From positions 1-11,936 of IMG/VR virus record IMGVR_UViG_2681813004_000015: a DNA stretch of 11,936 nucleotides; one strand, given 5' to 3'. Source of the stretch: a virus. Taxonomy: Duplodnaviria; Heunggongvirae; Uroviricota; Caudoviricetes. The first letter of the stretch is position 1, and every line of letters starts with the position of its first letter. Below, in pieces: positions 2,713 through 11,936 of this stretch. The position numbers and the translations under genes were made by a program. The notes beneath the pieces were generated by a model, which ran no database searches, had not been told where the DNA came from, and worked only from the letters and a program-made list of their open reading frames with translations.

Positions 2713-3921
2713 ATGGCGCTAAACAAACTGAGCGATAAAAAACTTCGTTCCCTGCTTGGGCGCAGGAGTGAGAGGCAGGAAACCATCGCTGATGGTAACG
2801 GGCTTTCGGTACGGGTCAGTAAATACGGATGTGTTAGTTTTGTTTTCTTTTACAGACTGGCGGGAAGGGGAACCGCGCCCATCTGGCTGACACTTGGAAA
2901 ATATCCTGATCTGAGTCTCAAATCAGCGAGAGAGATGCGCGATCAGTGTCGAACCTGGCTTGCGGAGGGCAGAGATCCACGGATTCAGATAAAAATTGAA
3001 CGGGAAGCCACTTTGCAACCTGTTACCGTTCGTGAGGCACTTGAATACTGGCTTGATAATTATGCAATGGATAAGCGTAGGGGAGCAGAACATATCAGGC
3101 AGTGCTTTGGTAAACATATTTATCCGGTGATTGGTCATGTACCACTTAGTGATTGCTCTATATCTATGTGGATCAAGTGTTTTGACAAAATAAAAAAAGT
3201 AGCACCTGTACAGGCCGGAGCTTTGTTGCGTATATCAAAACAGGCGCTTAAATTTTGTAGGGTAAGAAAATACGCGATTAGTCATGAAATTGATGATCTT
3301 GAGGTCTGTGATGTGGGAAAAAAGTCTGCGCGAAGAAGCAGGGTTTTAACAGATGATGAAATCAGAGATTTATGGCGAAGTATTAATACTGATTATGACA
3401 ATCACGAATTATCATATGAAAACCGAATTATTTTACGTTTCCTGGTAGTTTTTGGTTGTCGACTGTCAGAAGTATTACTGTCGTCCTGGGTAGAGTGGGA
3501 TTTTGATAAGAAATTATGGCGCGTTCCCGCTGATCATAGCAAAAATGGCAGGGAAATAATCAGACCGATTCCTGATGGCATGTTTAACTGGTTAGTTACG
3601 TTAAAAAAAATAACAGGTAACAAAGAAAATGTGATTGGGTTTGATATGCGTCAGTGTACGGCAAGCGTAACTATCGGTAAGACATGGAAAAGGATGAAAC
3701 ACTCGGAAAAATGGACGGCGCATGATATGCGAAGAGTGTTTGCCACAAAGCTAAGTGATCATGGTTTTGAACATAATGTGGTTGAACAGTTGCTTGGGCA
3801 CACATTAGGCGGTGTTGCCGGGGTTTATAACAGAAGTCAGTATATGGACAGAAAAAAAGAAGCTATGAACTGGTGGTACGACTATCTGAATAAGCTAATT
3901 AGTGGTGACGGTAATGATTGA
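2713..3921 (+). CDS. int: tyrosine integrase, P4-integrase family
   Basis: N-terminal arm-binding domain pattern (GLSVRVSKYG...FVFFYRL...LTLGKYPDLSLKSAREMR) and C-terminal catalytic residues (R...HDMRR...LLGH...Y). ATG at 2713 (MALNKLSD) preferred over the upstream ATG at 2677. Confidence 0.92.
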   Translation: MALNKLSDKKLRSLLGRRSERQETIADGNGLSVRVSKYGCVSFVFFYRLAGRGTAPIWLTLGKYPDLSLKSAREMRDQCRTWLAEGRDPRIQIKIEREATLQPVTVREALEYWLDNYAMDKRRGAEHIRQCFGKHIYPVIGHVPLSDCSISMWIKCFDKIKKVAPVQAGALLRISKQALKFCRVRKYAISHEIDDLEVCDVGKKSARRSRVLTDDEIRDLWRSINTDYDNHELSYENRIILRFLVVFGCRLSEVLLSSWVEWDFDKKLWRVPADHSKNGREIIRPIPDGMFNWLVTLKKITGNKENVIGFDMRQCTASVTIGKTWKRMKHSEKWTAHDMRRVFATKLSDHGFEHNVVEQLLGHTLGGVAGVYNRSQYMDRKKEAMNWWYDYLNKLISGDGND

Positions 3922-4135
3922 AATAGTTACGCGTGAAGAACTTGAAAATGATAAAACAATCGACAGGATGATTAAGGAAGATGAATGTGCATGGTTAACA
4001 GCTCTTGGCAGGAGACACAGAGCATTACTTGAAAAGGAAGGAAAATTTCCACGGAAAATATGTATTGGCCCACAAACAAAAGTCTGGCGCTTATCTGAGG
4101 TGCTGGAATGGGTAAAGGGTGAATGGAAACCCTGA
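3914..4135 (+). CDS. alpA: AlpA-family DNA-binding protein (excisionase/activator type)
   Basis: Small HTH protein with AlpA-like motif (LLEKEGKFPRKICIGPQTKVWRLSEVLEWV). ATG at 3914 overlaps the int 3' end by 8 nt. Followed by a hairpin terminator. Confidence 0.75.
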   Translation: MIEIVTREELENDKTIDRMIKEDECAWLTALGRRHRALLEKEGKFPRKICIGPQTKVWRLSEVLEWVKGEWKP

Positions 4136-4198: not shown

Positions 4199-4477
4199 AT
4201 GCAAAAATTTATTTATCCTACACCCGAAGAACGCATTCAGATTCTGAAAGAACATGGCGAACCGTATGATCGCCGTATACGCGAACATGAGTGTGCCAAT
4301 CGTACCGGGCTTTCAAGAAGCAGACGTTGGGTACTTGAACAGGAGGGAGCATTTCCTGCTCGTGCTCATTTAGGGAAAGTGTCTGTTTCCTGGTTGCTCT
4401 CTGATGTGCTCTGGTGGGTTATGCATCCGCCAGGAGTAAAGGAAGTAAACAGCCCATACAAAAACGCCAATAAGTAA
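4199..4477 (+). CDS. second AlpA-family DNA-binding protein (paralog)
   Basis: Motif LEQEGAFPARAHLGKVSVSWLLSDVLWWV parallels the upstream AlpA-like gene. ATG at 4199 has an AGGTGA RBS and lies just past the preceding terminator; the track start at 4169 falls inside the hairpin. Confidence 0.65.
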   Translation: MQKFIYPTPEERIQILKEHGEPYDRRIREHECANRTGLSRSRRWVLEQEGAFPARAHLGKVSVSWLLSDVLWWVMHPPGVKEVNSPYKNANK

Positions 4478-5868: not shown

Positions 5869-5948
5869 GGTGTGTTTCAGTATACACAAAAAAGAAATAC
5901 AAAAAAGGCTTGACGTGTGTTTCACTCCTAAATAACATGAAACACACC
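5869..5948 (+). promoter_or_regulatory. promoter for the rightward operon overlapped by operator repeats (GTGTGTTTCA motif)
   Basis: -35 TTGACG (5910-5915), 17-bp spacer, -10 TAACAT (5933-5938). Motif GGTGTGTTTCA at 5869-5879, GTGTGTTTCA at 5915-5924 and its inverted copy TGAAACACACC at 5938-5948; the latter two form a palindrome bracketing the -10. Confidence 0.5.
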
Positions 5949-6044
5949 AAAGGTTTTATTGAAATACAAACGACGAAACCCCGCACTGTTGGAGCAGTAA
6001 CGGGGCTTCTAACCACCAACGATAGCAAGAGTATCGAGGTAGCT

Positions 6045-6248
6045 ATGAGAAATCATACCACACACCCGCAAGGGCGGGACTCGCACAACCTGAATAAATA
6101 CATCTGGCGTTTTATCGCCCTGAGCACGGCACAACCGCGCGTGATTACCATTGAGGCCACCAGCGAACAGGAAGCACGCCAGCAATCTCCTGATGGCTGT
6201 GTGATGGTATTCGCCTCCCGTATTCGTCAGGAGGTGCACCATGATTAA
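6045..6248 (+). CDS. hypothetical small protein (67 aa), first gene of the rightward operon
   Basis: ATG 6045 preceded by GAGGTAG RBS; the longer track ORF from 5721 overlaps the repressor gene and promoter. Stop overlaps the next start. Confidence 0.5.
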   Translation: MRNHTTHPQGRDSHNLNKYIWRFIALSTAQPRVITIEATSEQEARQQSPDGCVMVFASRIRQEVHHD

Positions 6249-6453
6249 TCTGTCACTTACCGACCTTAACCGCATTCAGTTTCGTGAGAAATTTACCGGG
6301 CAGCTACTGGTCAATGTGGATAAAGGTCGCGTGGTGTGTAATTACCACCTGCCAGATGAAGCAATTGTCGCAACAAGGGAATCATTACAGGAACTCGCAG
6401 AACGTGCCGGAATGATTAATGCGAATATTCAGGGGGTGAGCCATGTGCAATAA
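6241..6453 (+). CDS. hypothetical small protein (70 aa)
   Basis: AGGAGG RBS immediately upstream of ATG 6241; overlaps the previous ORF by 8 nt and the next by 11 nt, indicating coupling. Confidence 0.55.
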   Translation: MINLSLTDLNRIQFREKFTGQLLVNVDKGRVVCNYHLPDEAIVATRESLQELAERAGMINANIQGVSHVQ

Positions 6454-6772
6454 CACCCGTCCGGACGCAGCCGCCGAAGCTATCAGAACGCTGATGCACG
6501 CGCTGATTGATATTTCATGCACGGCAGCAACCGCAGAAAAACACATTACCAGAGAGACCGAAGCTATCAGAACGCTGATGCACGCGCTGATTGATATTTC
6601 ATGCACGGCAGCAACCGCAGAAAAACACATTACCAGAGAGACGGAATATACAGGGGCAATAATCCCGCATTCGCTGGTCTACACACAGCTTACCGCTGAT
6701 ATGGCGCTGAATGAGGCTAAAGCCATCCTGATTGCTGATTGTGAAAATGGCGGGGGCGATTATGCGAAATAA
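6443..6772 (+). CDS. hypothetical protein (109 aa) containing a 28-residue exact tandem repeat
   Basis: GGGGTGA RBS upstream of ATG 6443. Residues EAIRTLMHALIDISCTAATAEKHITRET occur twice in tandem, encoded by an 84-bp direct repeat. Confidence 0.55.
   Translation: MCNNTRPDAAAEAIRTLMHALIDISCTAATAEKHITRETEAIRTLMHALIDISCTAATAEKHITRETEYTGAIIPHSLVYTQLTADMALNEAKAILIADCENGGGDYAK
6476..6643 (+). repeat. 84-bp tandem direct repeat, two copies, in-frame within a small ORF
   Basis: 6476-6559 and 6560-6643 are identical except for the final base (83/84). Confidence 0.95.
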
Positions 6773-6980
6773 ACATGATATTGAAGACCTGGCATTTGAA
6801 GCCCTGCACTCTGCGAAAAAAATCAGGGAAGTCGTCAATATGTGGATGAACAGCCTTAGCACCGATAAATCCGATAGCAGAGAAGAAATTCTTATTTCTT
6901 TGTTGTTAGACCTGGCAAATACACAGGTTTCTCTGACATCTGATATTGAGCTCGCCGCTAAAAAGCTGCCTCTGGAGTAA
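6762..6980 (+). CDS. hypothetical small protein (~72 aa)
   Basis: ATG 6762 with G-rich RBS; overlaps the stop of the preceding ORF. The track ORF starts earlier at 6732, so the start is uncertain. Confidence 0.45.
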   Translation: MRNKHDIEDLAFEALHSAKKIREVVNMWMNSLSTDKSDSREEILISLLLDLANTQVSLTSDIELAAKKLPLE

Positions 6981-6986
6981 AAAAAC

Positions 6987-7301
6987 ATGAAAAAGAAAAA
7001 TTCTGGCTTTACTGCCAGCGGTCACGCTCGGCCTGAAATCCGCCCCGGTGATATTTTCCGGGATAAATACGGCAGCACGATAACGATTAAAACCGTCGAT
7101 GATTTTCGTGTGACCTATATCCGCGAAGGTTATGCGCATCCCTGCGTGTCGTCACATATGCGCTTTGACAGGGAGTTCACCTTGGTAAGCAAAGCACCAC
7201 CAGCAGAATTAAGCGACATCGACAGAATCATGCGCGTTACAGGAATGGAACGCATTAAGGCAGTACGTGAAATTATTCGTGAACGGGGAAAGGCAAAATG
7301 A
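6987..7301 (+). CDS. hypothetical protein (104 aa), translationally coupled to the replication protein gene
   Basis: GGAG RBS upstream of ATG 6987; its stop overlaps the start of the downstream 707-aa gene (ATGA at 7298-7301). Confidence 0.55.
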   Translation: MKKKNSGFTASGHARPEIRPGDIFRDKYGSTITIKTVDDFRVTYIREGYAHPCVSSHMRFDREFTLVSKAPPAELSDIDRIMRVTGMERIKAVREIIRERGKAK

Positions 7302-9421
7302 AGCGCGCACCAAACTTAAAGCACCAGCCAGCCGACAAAATGACGGAGGTTATCATCTTTGCGGGTAGTGATGCGTGGAGCCATGCGAAAGAGTGGCAGG
7401 AATGGGCAGGTAAACATATTGCCGCCGACAATGTGCCGCCTGTCGTTCTGTCAGATGAACACCTGAAAGATATTACTGGTTATCAAATTATTGATGATAG
7501 CCGTCAGTGTGTGCGTATTTACCGCGCAGGGCACATCACTGAACGTAGCCTCACACAGATCGTCACGTTGCTGGCTGTGGCTGGCGTGAAGACCGTATAC
7601 GAATACGCGGGGATAACTGACACCAGCCCGGCGGATTTATCCGACCAGTTGCCTCGCCTCAAAGACGAATACGAGCGCGGGGAAAGTCTGGTGTTGCCCT
7701 TAAAGAAAAAAATCACAGAAAGCCCGGGTGATGATGAATTAAAGCCCCGCGTTGAAAGCCGCGCCGATGGTGTTTTCTGGGTAACGCCAAAAGTGGATAA
7801 GCAGTCAGGCGAAATTATCCGGCCTGAAACGTGGTTATGCTCCCCGCTTGAGCTACTGGGAACGGGGACAATCGGCAAAGAGCATTACCGCGTGATGCGC
7901 TGGAAAAAGCCAGCAAACCATGACGTCATCACGATGGCGGTTCCGTGCGGTGGCATTGGCGACCGTGACGGCTGGCGGCTGCTGAAAGACCACGGACTGA
8001 ACGTGACAACCAACGGTAAATACAGGGCTATCCTGGCTGACTGGATGCAGTTAAGCGGAAACCATGAGGAATGGCAGTTAAGCACAACAACGGGCTGGCA
8101 TTTTGGCGCGTACATCATGCCGGACGGTTCGGTCATTGGTGATTGCGAAAAGCCAGTCCTGTTTACCGGAAAAACGGCTGCCGTTAATGGTTATTCCGTG
8201 GCAGGAACGGCGGAGGGCTGGCGCGATACCGTGGCGCGACTGGCTGGTGGTAATCCGTCCATGATGCTGGGTGTGGCGGTATCGCTATCCGCACCATTAA
8301 TCGGGCTGGTGGGTGCTGACGGCTTCGGGGTACATCTTTTCGAACAGTCATCAGCAGGGAAAACCACCACACAGAATATCGCATCCAGTTTATGGGGGGA
8401 GCCGGACGCGCAGCGGCTGACCTGGTACGGTACAGCGTTAGGTATCGCCAACGAGGCAGAGGCACACAACGACGGGCTGTTACCCCTGGATGAAATAGGC
8501 CAGGCCGGAAACGCGCGGGAGGTGTCCACATCGGCCTATACGCTGTTTAACGGTTCCGGGAAATTACAGGGGGCGAAGGACGGCGGCAACCGGGAGATAA
8601 AACACTGGCGAACGGTGGCAATCAGTACCGGAGAAATGGACGTTGAAACATTCCTCAAAACGGAAGGGATAAAAGTCAAGGCGGGGCAGCTTGTCCGCCT
8701 GCTTAACGTGCCAATGGAAAAAGCCACACAATTTCACGAATACAGCACCGGAAAGGCGCACGCAGACGCGTTAAAGGATGCCTGGACAGAAAATCACGGG
8801 GCGGCGGGGCGTGAATGGGTTAAATGGCTGGCAGACCATCAGCAGGAGGCAAAGGACACGGTAAGGACATGCCGTGAGCGGTGGCGCAACCTGATACCGG
8901 AGAGCTACGGCGAACAGGTTCACCGTGTGGGGGAGCGATTTGCCATACTGGAGGCCGCGCTTGTGCTTTCAGGTCATGTTACTGGCTGGGATGAGCAGGA
9001 ATGCCGCGATGCCATACAGCATAATTTTAATGCCTGGGTGAAGGAGTTCGGCACGGGTAACAGGGAGTTTAAACAGATGGTTGAACAGGCAGAGGCTTTT
9101 TTAGCGTCGTTCGGATTCAGCAGATACCTTCCGTGGCCCAACACCGACGAGCGTGATTTACCGATTAAAGAGCTTGCCGGATACAGAAAGGGGAGTATCA
9201 GAAACGAAGATGACGAGTTCCGTTTTTACACGTTCCCGCATGTATTTGAGGGTGAGATAGCACAGGGATTTAATCCGTCTCACTTTGCCCGCGTGTTGAG
9301 TGCTGCCGGAATGCTGGAAGCGGGTAACGATCGCCGTTACAAGAAAAAGGCGCTCGGCAAAATTGGGGGGAAGCAGCATGTTTTTTACGTGCTGATGTTC
9401 CAGCCTGAGGCAGAAGATTAA
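7298..9421 (+). CDS. replication protein: P-loop NTPase of the DUF927 / primase-helicase type (PICI pri-rep-like)
   Basis: 707-aa ORF with Walker A (FEQSSAGKTT) and Walker B (GLLPLDEIGQ) motifs. General resemblance to DUF927-type replicative helicase/primase proteins of satellites and plasmids. Immediately followed by iterons. Confidence 0.8.
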   Translation: MKRAPNLKHQPADKMTEVIIFAGSDAWSHAKEWQEWAGKHIAADNVPPVVLSDEHLKDITGYQIIDDSRQCVRIYRAGHITERSLTQIVTLLAVAGVKTVYEYAGITDTSPADLSDQLPRLKDEYERGESLVLPLKKKITESPGDDELKPRVESRADGVFWVTPKVDKQSGEIIRPETWLCSPLELLGTGTIGKEHYRVMRWKKPANHDVITMAVPCGGIGDRDGWRLLKDHGLNVTTNGKYRAILADWMQLSGNHEEWQLSTTTGWHFGAYIMPDGSVIGDCEKPVLFTGKTAAVNGYSVAGTAEGWRDTVARLAGGNPSMMLGVAVSLSAPLIGLVGADGFGVHLFEQSSAGKTTTQNIASSLWGEPDAQRLTWYGTALGIANEAEAHNDGLLPLDEIGQAGNAREVSTSAYTLFNGSGKLQGAKDGGNREIKHWRTVAISTGEMDVETFLKTEGIKVKAGQLVRLLNVPMEKATQFHEYSTGKAHADALKDAWTENHGAAGREWVKWLADHQQEAKDTVRTCRERWRNLIPESYGEQVHRVGERFAILEAALVLSGHVTGWDEQECRDAIQHNFNAWVKEFGTGNREFKQMVEQAEAFLASFGFSRYLPWPNTDERDLPIKELAGYRKGSIRNEDDEFRFYTFPHVFEGEIAQGFNPSHFARVLSAAGMLEAGNDRRYKKKALGKIGGKQHVFYVLMFQPEAED

Positions 9422-9442
9422 CCCCCTGTGTGAGGTGAAAAG

Positions 9443-9568
9443 TTGCGGGTTATGCGGGTTATCTTGTGTATAAGTGCATTAACTGTATGAATAAAAAGGA
9501 AATCAATAACCCGCACGTAACCCGCAAAACGGCAGTTATAACCCGCAAAAGTGCGATTATAACCCGCA
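9443..9568. repeat. iteron-type replication origin: six copies of ATAACCCGCA-like 10-mer flanking an AT-rich tract
   Basis: Direct copies at 9506-9515, 9517-9526 (GTAACCCGCA), 9538-9547 and 9559-9568, with start-to-start spacings of 11, 21 and 21 bp. Two inverted tandem copies at 9443-9462. AT-rich tract 9463-9505 between them. Confidence 0.65.
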
Positions 9569-9631
9569 GAATTTCACCGTAAGGGTGTAAACAAGCGTAA
9601 CAATCAACGTTAAAACCGGAGAACAGACAGC

Positions 9632-10057
9632 ATGACAGCACAGATAGCGGCTTACGGGCGGCTGGTGGCTGACCCGCAGTTAAAGACCACCAGCAAAGGG
9701 ACACAAATGGCGATGGCGAGTATGGCGGTTCCCCTGCCGTGCAGCCAGGCAGATGACGGAACGGCGACGATGTGGTTATCCGTCCTGGCGTTTGGCAGAC
9801 AGGCCGACGCACTGGCCAGACACCACAAAGGCGAACTGGTGAGCGTGGCGGGTAACATGCAGGTAAGCCAGTGGACAGGCCAGAACGGCGAAACGCGGCA
9901 GGGCTGGCAGGTCATCGCAGACAGCGTAATCAGTGCGCGGACAGTGCGACCGGGCGGCAAAAAAGGCCAGCAGGGCCAGGCTACTGACGCACTGAACAGG
10001 GCAAAACAACAGACAGGCCAGCACGATGATCCGTACGGGGACGGGATACCGTTTTAA
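9632..10057 (+). CDS. ssb: single-stranded DNA-binding protein (short phage/plasmid-type SSB)
   Basis: OB-fold pattern parallels E. coli SSB (GRLVADPQLK..., WLSVLAFGRQADALARHHKGELVSVAGNMQVSQWTGQNGETRQGWQV), a G/Q-rich linker, and C-terminal tail ...DDPYGDGIPF resembling the canonical DDDIPF tip. Confidence 0.82.
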   Translation: MTAQIAAYGRLVADPQLKTTSKGTQMAMASMAVPLPCSQADDGTATMWLSVLAFGRQADALARHHKGELVSVAGNMQVSQWTGQNGETRQGWQVIADSVISARTVRPGGKKGQQGQATDALNRAKQQTGQHDDPYGDGIPF

Positions 10058-10072
10058 GCAGTGAGGTACAGC

Positions 10073-10354
10073 ATGATTAAAGACAGCAAAGCGGAAGAAC
10101 TGGAGGCTAAAGGGCTGTACCGGAGAGCGGCGGCACGTTGGGCTGATGTTATGTGGCTGGTGAGCACTGACAAGGAGCGCGAACAAGTGGCAAAGCGTCG
10201 CGCGGAATGTATCCGTAAGGCAGCGCGCCAACCAGTCATACCGGATAATTTCGGAATACTGAAAGAGGCCATAAACCGCACACATACCGGGATGGGCTTA
10301 CAGAAACCTGGCGGTGAGATGTTCAGGAACTACCCGAAAAAAAGGGATAATTGA
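10073..10354 (+). CDS. perC: PerC-family transcriptional regulator (Pch-like)
   Basis: N-terminus MIKDSKAEELEAKGLYRRAAARWADVM... matches the PerC/Pch signature. GAGG RBS 6 nt upstream of ATG 10073; the track start at 10061 is GTG. Confidence 0.75.
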   Translation: MIKDSKAEELEAKGLYRRAAARWADVMWLVSTDKEREQVAKRRAECIRKAARQPVIPDNFGILKEAINRTHTGMGLQKPGGEMFRNYPKKRDN

Positions 10355-10399
10355 TAACGGTTGTTAACTGTTTCTGGTATCGTGGCAGCAGGAGGAAAC

Positions 10400-10648
10400 A
10401 TGCCAGTGACATTTGAAGAAGTCCAGCAACATAAAAAGTTTCATGGTTTTGATGATCTGGAAACCACGACAGCAAAAAAATATCGCCGTCTGCTTTCTTC
10501 CGATGCGTTGTTTGTTGTGGATCATCATGATTTTCTGCGCAGCTCACTGACCGGGGAAATTTTCGCAACCAACCGTGAGCAGGTGGAAGCGATGATCGAA
10601 TATCTGTGGAAAATAAGGCGCAGAATGCGTGATCCCGTGAAACGGTAG
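10400..10648 (+). CDS. hypothetical small protein (82 aa) downstream of perC
   Basis: Strong AGGAGG RBS 3 nt upstream of ATG 10400; followed by a strong terminator. A second near-identical copy lies at 11165-11413. Confidence 0.6.
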   Translation: MPVTFEEVQQHKKFHGFDDLETTTAKKYRRLLSSDALFVVDHHDFLRSSLTGEIFATNREQVEAMIEYLWKIRRRMRDPVKR

Positions 10649-10652
10649 AATA

Positions 10653-10687
10653 ATAATGGCCTGGTATTTTCCAGGCCATTATTTTTA
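10653..10687. terminator. strong bidirectional intrinsic terminator
   Basis: Perfect 10-bp stem AATGGCCTGG / CCAGGCCATT (10655-10664 / 10671-10680), loop TATTTT, T-run downstream and A-rich tract upstream. Confidence 0.75.
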
Positions 10688-10735
10688 GAAGTGTTGCTGA
10701 ATGAACATTGCTTTTTTCAGTTCATTTTCTGACAT
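10685..10735 (-). pseudogene. remnant of the 157-aa minus-strand gene: first 14 codons only, then deletion junction
   Basis: 10693-10749 matches 11880-11936, which holds the RBS and first codons (MSENELKKAMFIQQ) of the intact gene at 11449-11922. Here the frame ends after 16 codons at the junction with the terminator. Confidence 0.7.
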
Positions 10736-10809
10736 AGTTCGTTCCTCCTGATTAACGAGCAGAAAATGTACGGAACAGCTTATTTATTTTTTCAGGTTTT
10801 GTAAATTAT

Positions 10810-10839
10810 TTGTTCGTGGTTGTTCCAGGTTGTTCACTG
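10810..10839. repeat. three helically phased TTGTTC repeats (10-bp period)
   Basis: TTGTTCGTGG / TTGTTCCAGG / TTGTTCACTG at 10810, 10820 and 10830. On the minus strand they sit just upstream of a TTTACA -35-like hexamer in the leader of the 157-aa gene. Confidence 0.45.
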
Positions 10840-10896
10840 AGCGGATCGGCATATTTTACCCGAACTGAATCATGATTATTCTCGCCCGTGGTGCCA

Positions 10897-11119
10897 GGAC
10901 GTTTGGGCTGATGTTATGTGGCTGGTGAGCACTGACAAGGAGCGCGAACAAGTGGCAAAGCGTCGCGCGGAATGTATCCGTAAGGCAGCACGCCCACCAG
11001 TCATACCGGATAATTTCGGAATACTGAAAGAGGCCATAAACCGCACACATACCGGGATGGGCTTACAGAAACCTGGCGGTGAGATGTTCAGGAACTACCC
11101 GAAAAAAAGGGATAATTGA
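10897..11119 (+). pseudogene. 5'-truncated second copy of perC (lacks first ~21 codons, RBS and start)
   Basis: Homology to perC begins at the codon for ARWADVM. Upstream is unrelated sequence with a 1-nt insertion at the junction. Longest ORF is the internal-Met fragment 10916-11119, which carries one substitution versus copy A (Q to P). Confidence 0.7.
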
Positions 11120-11164
11120 TAACGGTTGTTAACTGTTTCTGGTATCGTGGCAGCAGGAGGAAAC

Positions 11165-11413
11165 ATGCCAGTGACATTTGAAGAAGTCCAGCAACATAAA
11201 AAGTTTCATGGTTTTGATGATCTGGAAACCACGACAGCAAAAAAATATCGCCGTCTGCTTTCTTCCGATGCGTTGTTTGTTGTGGATCATAATGATTTTC
11301 TGCGCAGCTCACTGACCGGGGAAATTTTCGCAACCAACCGTGAGCAGGTGGAAGCGATGATCGAATATCTGTGGAAAATAAGGCGCAGAATGCGTGATCC
11401 CGTGAAACGGTAG
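11165..11413 (+). CDS. hypothetical small protein (82 aa), second copy
   Basis: Same RBS and ORF as 10400-10648 with one amino-acid difference (H to N). Confidence 0.6.
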   Translation: MPVTFEEVQQHKKFHGFDDLETTTAKKYRRLLSSDALFVVDHNDFLRSSLTGEIFATNREQVEAMIEYLWKIRRRMRDPVKR

Positions 11414-11417
11414 AATA

Positions 11418-11451
11418 ATAATGGCCTGGTATTTTCCAGGCCATTTTTTTA
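11418..11451. terminator. strong bidirectional intrinsic terminator, second copy
   Basis: Stem AATGGCCTGG / CCAGGCCATT (11420-11429 / 11436-11445), loop TATTTT, T-run 11444-11450. Serves the converging genes on both strands. Confidence 0.75.
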
Positions 11452-11922
11452 GAAGTCGATCTCTGTATCGCGATTAAATTCATCGCTAAGGTAAAGTGCT
11501 TCGCTTGGGCATTTTCCGTTTTCCAGTAATGTTTCCCAGAAATCTTTATCGAAACACCCCTCAAGATACAGATAGCGGCAGATGTGAAGTAAATCACTTC
11601 GTGTCCATCCGTGCATGCTGCTACTTGTTACACCATATTCACTTTCTAGTTTATAGAATGTGAGCGCCTCCCGGTCATGCCAGGCTTTGCACAGACGATC
11701 GTATATCTTTTTAGCTTTGTTTTTAGATGTGCCGAAAAACTCTTCGTAAATTTCATGTGGGCGAGTAGGAATGCTTCCGTCGCCATCCTGCAAGAAAGGA
11801 TAAACATCTGCCTCCCAGGCATACACGTAAGAATCGCTGAACTCATCATAGTGTTTACCAAGGTGGAGAATCTGCAATCGTTGCTGAATGAACATTGCTT
11901 TTTTCAGTTCATTTTCTGACAT
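11449..11922 (-). CDS. hypothetical acidic, aromatic-rich protein (157 aa), function unknown
   Basis: Minus-strand ORF with AGGAGG RBS (plus 11931-11936) 8 nt upstream of ATG (11922). Converges on the bidirectional terminator. Rich in D/E and Y/F/W. No family recognised by eye. Confidence 0.7.
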   Translation of the reverse strand: MSENELKKAMFIQQRLQILHLGKHYDEFSDSYVYAWEADVYPFLQDGDGSIPTRPHEIYEEFFGTSKNKAKKIYDRLCKAWHDREALTFYKLESEYGVTSSSMHGWTRSDLLHICRYLYLEGCFDKDFWETLLENGKCPSEALYLSDEFNRDTEIDF

Positions 11923-11936
11923 AGTTCGTTCCTCCT

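Follow-up and report, generated by a model that had tools for sequence, protein, structure and literature searches.

An exact 84-bp in-frame tandem duplication, probably private and very recent, in a small gene of a cf-PICI-like satellite

Does a small phage-satellite gene that carries the same 84 nucleotides twice represent one state of a repeat that varies between isolates, a single private mutation, or a product of sequence assembly? The window analyzed here, 11,936 nt long, is the entire contig AOTC01000161.1 of the Escherichia coli draft assembly GCA_001447405.1; a literature search found no publications mentioning AOTC00000000, AOTC01, or GCA_001447405. The gene lies in the early operon of a cf-PICI-like phage satellite that sits in a prophage terL gene. 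The promoter-like site, the genes of the operon, and the repeat units are as follows.

5910-5938, plus strand: promoter-like site preceding the operon (match to consensus only)
6045-6248, plus strand: Icd-like cell-division-inhibitor gene, the first of the operon (gene call; NCBIfam NF033153, E 1.3e-18)
6241-6453, plus strand: 70-aa ORF, phrog_340 (unknown function), whose stop overlaps the start of the duplicated gene
6443-6772, plus strand: duplication-bearing gene, 109 aa, member of PHROG 5146/2512 (unknown function)
6474-6557, plus strand: tandem duplication unit 1, 84 nt, 100% identical to 6558-6641; Tandem Repeats Finder period 84
6558-6641, plus strand: tandem duplication unit 2, 84 nt, 100% identical to 6474-6557
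6762-6980, plus strand: 72-aa downstream ORF, whose ATG overlaps the end of the duplicated gene
6987-7301, plus strand: DUF4222 gene (Pfam PF13973, E 8.8e-19)
7298-9421, plus strand: DUF927 primase/replication gene, the last of the operon (Pfam PF06048, E 1.4e-45)

The extent and identity of the duplication were determined in three ways. Tandem Repeats Finder returned one high-scoring array, spanning 6474-6646 (period 84, 2.1 copies, 98% matches, score 339), direct comparison showed that base i equals base i+84 along 85 consecutive positions (6474-6558), and a repeat search placed the units 6474-6557 and 6558-6641 head to tail, 84/84 identical and without a spacer. The two units are indistinguishable as to which is the original and which the new copy. 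The initial annotation had described a near-perfect in-frame duplication of 84 bp with 83/84 identity. All three approaches confirmed the duplication, but the mismatch did not stand: it appears only when the units are set in the phase 6476-6559 versus 6560-6643, in which the last base differs (6559 C versus 6643 G). This difference is the edge of the duplicated block and no post-event substitution, and the divergence between the copies is thus zero. It is also synonymous, with Thr encoded by ACC at the junction and by ACG at the other position, and one-copy relatives have ACG. An exact 84-nt tandem repeat cannot be due to chance; a degenerate 41-nt pattern of the junction occurred once in the window and in 0 of 200 shuffles. 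At the protein level, the 28-residue segment EAIRTLMHALIDISCTAATAEKHITRET is found twice in the 109-aa product, at residues 12-39 and 40-67, in agreement with the two exact copies described at first. That the gene belongs to an operon was likewise borne out, as it overlaps the upstream ORF 6241-6453 and the downstream ORF 6762-6980 by 11 nt each, within a series of ORFs on one strand (6045-9421) in which stops and starts overlap.

Copy number had been expected to vary between isolates, and a comparison of homologous islands for one-, two-, or multi-copy alleles had been proposed. A 101-nt junction query was therefore compared with 5,426 complete E. coli genomes; the unit was present in 407 of them and the junction in none. 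All 34 records that covered the query (34/34) did so in two pieces mapping onto only 85-96 nt, which corresponds to one copy. The 41-nt degenerate pattern, which recovered the window itself as a positive control, had 0 matches in scans of metagenomes, GTDB species representatives, and IMG/VR viral contigs. Protein searches gave the same picture. The cluster of the 109-aa protein has a single member on a single contig, namely this window, and the window's own sequence was the only two-copy one found in 580 homologous protein clusters, the best 120 of which hold approximately 2,200 distinct one-copy member sequences (summed member counts). The other relatives examined were either about 78-87 aa long or fusions of 150-160 aa with a single N-terminal copy, and none of the 28 aligned relatives (0/28) had the extra 28 residues. 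Furthermore, HMMER, run without filters on 1.84 billion representatives, returned 34 family proteins at E <= 0.001, 0 of them duplicated. Phage records contained no homologue, and the four plasmid-labelled records were single-copy. When one unit was deleted, the window aligned uninterrupted to 13 complete genomes with 97.3-98.1% identity; with both units in place, window segments 5999-6562 and 6558-10692 both aligned onto the one-copy locus L001 at 6477-6565. Outside this window, no two-copy allele was met in genomes, metagenomes, viral contigs, or proteins, and the expected variation between isolates was not observed. Because no collection searched contained a second multi-copy sequence, the allele is private, and the locus does not qualify as a variable-number repeat; by these comparisons the two-copy state is derived, a singleton. 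Like coding variable-number tandem repeats (VNTRs) and contingency loci, it is an in-frame tandem repeat in a gene of a mobile element. It differs from them in having only two copies of a long unit (84 nt) and in the feature that defines VNTRs, since copy number, when compared between isolates, did not differ.

We consider it likely that the duplication is genuine and very recent, having arisen once, head to tail, in this isolate or in the lineage immediately around it. In the one-copy ancestor, the sequence is GCCGC CGAAGC at the left edge of the unit and GAGAC GGAATA at the right edge, and the junction joins GAGAC directly to CGAAGC. The flank to the right of the breakpoint resembles the start of the unit.

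6642-6646, plus strand: right breakpoint flank CGGAA, resembling the unit start CCGAA at 6474-6478

The starting state would be the one-copy gene in the early/replication operon of the satellite, and the likely mechanism would be RecA-independent replication slippage or template switching. A nascent strand ending in GAGAC would re-pair 84 nt upstream, at the boundary between GCCGC and CGAAGC, and the stretch would be copied twice; the pairing would rely on an imperfect match, C(C/G)GAA, that includes 1 nt of exact homology. This breakpoint microhomology (1 nt exact, C; 4/5 imperfect, CCGAA versus CGGAA) is compatible with such a mechanism, though its shortness keeps it from being diagnostic, and a search at the breakpoints for inverted repeats able to form hairpins found none. 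Microhomology-mediated, RecA-independent tandem duplication is an established general mutational class. The present case shares with it spacerless head-to-tail copies, a one-copy ancestor with identical flanks, and zero divergence, whereas its exact homology is just 1 nt and no secondary-structure driver was found. Of the recent slippage or unequal crossover proposed initially, the recency agrees with the zero substitutions and the form fits slippage or template switching, from which we infer the mechanism. The allele would then be an ordinary private in-frame duplication of a well-understood mutational type, probably very recent and with no population signal. Since 84 nt equal 28 codons, the reading frame is kept, and an in-frame event also keeps the overlapping start of the next ORF, so that translation can run on to the primase gene. 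Preserved translational coupling alone may explain why the allele is tolerated.

A less probable reading, which we hold to be unlikely although of some weight, is that the isolate has a one-copy gene and that the second unit came from an unmerged contig-end overlap or from gap-filling. Unmerged overlaps and gap fills yield an exact tandem duplicate of the overlap, and here the units are perfectly identical, the allele occurs in exactly one draft contig worldwide, and the duplication is located well inside the contig, at 6.5 of 11.9 kb. A length that keeps the frame would arise by itself one time in three. On the other side, an event that is in frame and in heptad register is what one would sooner expect from a real mutation that survived. 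In addition, building AGAGAGAC followed by CGAAGC takes reads that contain the junction, whether the assembler is of the de Bruijn or the overlap type, and because the ends of the unit share only 1-5 nt, their sequences suggest that no graph cycle would form from a one-copy template. The same contig contains a second repeat, in which a pair consisting of a PerC gene and an 82-aa ORF occurs twice (10135-10692 and 10899-11456, 99.1% identity, spacing 765), and a 57-nt exact repeat (10693-10749 equal to 11880-11936) that ends on the last base of the contig. This second duplication-like structure and the terminal repeat mean that the assembly of the contig is not beyond suspicion. If, on a weak inference, the length of the 57-nt terminal repeat is equated with the assembler's k, an overlap left unmerged would measure 56-57 nt and not 84. 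Segments of the contig also match two different satellite architectures of complete genomes: 10560-10908 aligns unbroken with the TUM1886 satellite, and the remainder is of the KFu019 type. More generally, an exact tandem duplicate that occurs only once, in a draft contig, should have the support of reads before a biological meaning is given to it. With respect to the second repeat itself, its first copy lacks a minus-strand 157-aa gene. The arrangement could be genuine, as a tandem duplication or a recombinant, or it could be a chimera in which the draft assembly joined two related satellites.

Taking the duplication as genuine, its consequence for the protein was predicted with AlphaFold2. 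On an alignment of 28 relatives, the one-copy model is a two-helix hairpin (helices at 7-37 and 39-73; pLDDT 84.8, pTM 0.67). The two-copy model has a continuous helix at 9-65 followed by a helix at 70-103 (pLDDT 68.0, pTM 0.35), and the part that loses most confidence is helix 2 (about 59-68, against about 93-96 in the one-copy model). The duplicated segment makes up most of predicted helix 1, and its 28 residues add exactly four heptads to that helix. The a/d seam formed by I14, L17, L21, I24, A28, A31, and I35 continues in register with I42, L45, L49, I52, A56, A59, and I63. Predicted helix 1 thereby grows from about 31 to about 57 residues, with the extra residues, approximately 28, having no intramolecular partner. 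The models thus suggest that the insertion lengthens an amphipathic helix and leaves its seam unbroken. Altered self-association of the two-copy protein would be plausible on this basis, as would a changed dimerization or binding module. Most likely, the two-copy protein would be neutral to mildly impaired and might self-associate differently; the change resembles neither a novel function nor a repeat programmed to vary. A real allele of this kind would be a natural mutant with four heptads inserted, which could serve to probe a conserved small protein of cf-PICIs.

The family to which the protein belongs was examined by profile and structure searches. The 109-aa protein matched phrog_5146 (E 5.7e-34) and phrog_2512 (E 8.8e-29), each in two stretches, and its relatives are 69-95% identical outside the insertion; in RefSeq they are named "hypothetical protein" (for example, WP_113649973.1, 81 aa). 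With the PHROG 5146/2512 proteins of enterobacterial phage satellites the allele has in common both the profile match and the gene position, which lies between the Icd-like gene and the DUF4222 and primase/helicase genes and is kept in KFu019, ETEC6335, a metagenome contig, and TUM1886. Members of these PHROGs consist of a single hairpin module of about 78-87 aa, or carry it at the N terminus of about 155 aa. The present allele, at 109 aa, departs from both forms, having 28 extra residues and a doubled helix-1 segment where the other members examined have one copy. Pfam, NCBIfam, and PADLOC gave no matches for the 109-aa protein or for a 155-aa relative, a profile search against PDB sequences returned only noise (E ~1.7), and Foldseek found nothing at E <= 0.001 when the one-copy model was compared with PDB and BFVD. 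Matches to helical hairpins of a generic kind, among them ATP-synthase c subunits and the DesK DHp domain (Foldseek E > 0.1), were dropped as noninformative, since by its sequence the protein appears too charged for a membrane hairpin. Two likenesses seen by eye, one between the N-terminal and C-terminal modules of the 155-aa fused relatives and the other between their C-terminal module and the 72-aa ORF of the window, gave no BLASTP alignment at E <= 100, and the older internal repeat that they implied was dropped for want of BLASTP support.

Two kinds of variation were observed among the relatives. The C-terminal half of helix 1 occurs in two alternative versions, ISCTAATAEKHITRE and ISVIADKAHKHATSE (columns 53-66 of alignment A1, approximately residues 53-66 of the 109-aa protein), on otherwise near-identical backgrounds, a pattern that suggests cassette-like recombination within the segment duplicated here. 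In addition, a homopolymeric G tract stands at the 3' end of the gene. With a G10 tract, the product is a 155-aa fusion to a second module; with a G9 tract, an 86-aa protein and a separate 73-aa ORF result. Each form is represented by many sequences.

6751-6760 of the window: G-tract site
L005, about 1745-1760 (CP122588.1): G-tract site
L006, about 1745-1760 (ERZ27280463 k141_85545): G-tract site

The tract of the window is interrupted (GGCGGGGGCG), and its downstream ORF is different from that of the relatives. The G tract could be a slippage-prone switch, a programmed frameshift site, or a homopolymer sequencing error. The fusion of the module to the following one in many relatives suggests that the two products act together.

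It is very improbable that the duplication was selected, or represents one state of a contingency-type repeat, and retunes the surface with which a satellite protein meets its host or helper phage. The insertion is in frame and exactly four heptads long, with a continuous hydrophobic seam and a continuous helix in the two-copy model; modular variation is also seen elsewhere in the family, in the ISCTAATAEKHITRE versus ISVIADKAHKHATSE cassettes of the same helix, and the toggling of split and fused forms by G9/G10 in relatives suggests an evolutionarily plastic locus. Against these points, no copy-number polymorphism was found, with one two-copy sequence facing the ~2,200 one-copy sequences of the best 120 clusters and the 407 complete genomes. 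The zero divergence between the copies gives no sign that the allele has persisted, confidence is lower for the two-copy model than for the one-copy model, and the Pfam, PHROG, NCBIfam, PADLOC, PDB profile, and Foldseek searches found no function to be tuned. Still less probable is the specific case of a real and selected duplication that changes the oligomeric state of the protein or how far it extends toward a partner in the host or helper phage. Were it true, the family would be a rapidly evolving interaction module of cf-PICI satellites, a reading that also draws on the cassette swapping in the same helix and the G-tract-controlled fusion. A noncoding role of the repeat, as iterons or a packaging site, was ruled out because all relatives have a single unit in a conserved ORF. 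As a private, very recent duplication, which is the reading we favor, the finding itself is of little weight, being one private mutation in an uncharacterized 81-aa protein. More unusual than the duplication are the recurrent insertion of the satellite into prophage terL and the fusion-toggling G tract of the relatives.

The surroundings of the operon were compared with those of cf-PICIs. An integrase gene, two AlpA-type genes, and a gene for a BRO-N protein lie upstream of the operon, and SSB and PerC genes lie downstream.

2713-3921: integrase gene (int), upstream of the operon
3914-4135 and 4199-4477: two AlpA-type genes, in tandem after int (both match phrog_2790 and PF05930)

With cf-PICIs, the element of the window shares an integrase, AlpA regulators, and primase/rep genes at its left side. 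The window stops at 11936, before the capsid module typical of cf-PICIs, whose presence here we infer from synteny only. The syntenic element in the complete genome of KFu019 is approximately 15-16 kb long, carries major capsid, prohead protease, portal, connector, HNH, TerS, and TerL genes of its own, and lacks tail genes, as described for the architecture of cf-PICIs; a capsid and packaging module is also found in the syntenic TUM1886 element. For comparison, the cf-PICI prototype EcCIEDL933 measures 15.4 kb (bioRxiv 10.1101/2022.09.08.507074). Elements of this class are induced by a helper phage and packaged into small capsids of their own, to which helper tails are joined. Six chromosomal attB sites were described for cf-PICIs (bioRxiv 10.1101/2022.09.08.507074). 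The element of the window lies within a prophage terL.

This insertion was observed at the terL/int junction, where the satellite sits inside the large-terminase gene of an HK97-like/lambdoid prophage.

1514-2713 of the window: terL/int junction locus
L003, NZ_CP091700.1 2785000-2834000: terL/int junction locus

The N-terminal part of terL, comprising the ATPase domain and the first 68 of 286 profile positions of the nuclease domain, runs directly into int. In KFu019, the C-terminal fragment of terL lies about 16 kb away, past the satellite's own terL. The terL/int junction was found in one piece in 36 of the 5,426 complete E. coli genomes, which indicates that the insertion is site-specific and has recurred, splitting a packaging gene of the prophage. 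A comparison of the two ends of the element in KFu019 for an att core gave no convincing direct repeat of at least 14 nt.

Two further features of the element were observed. PICIs are canonically described with a single alpA, and here the AlpA-type (excisionase/regulator) genes at 3914-4135 and 4199-4477 form a tandem pair. Just downstream of the primase gene, iteron-like repeats occupy 9444-9462 and 9518-9568, the array consisting of TGCGGGTTA twice and then of its reverse complement within a 21-nt unit, TAACCCGCAAAACGGCAATTA, repeated 2.4 times. These repeats are probably the replication origin of the satellite, and KFu019 has the same array together with an extra degenerate copy near the far end of its element.
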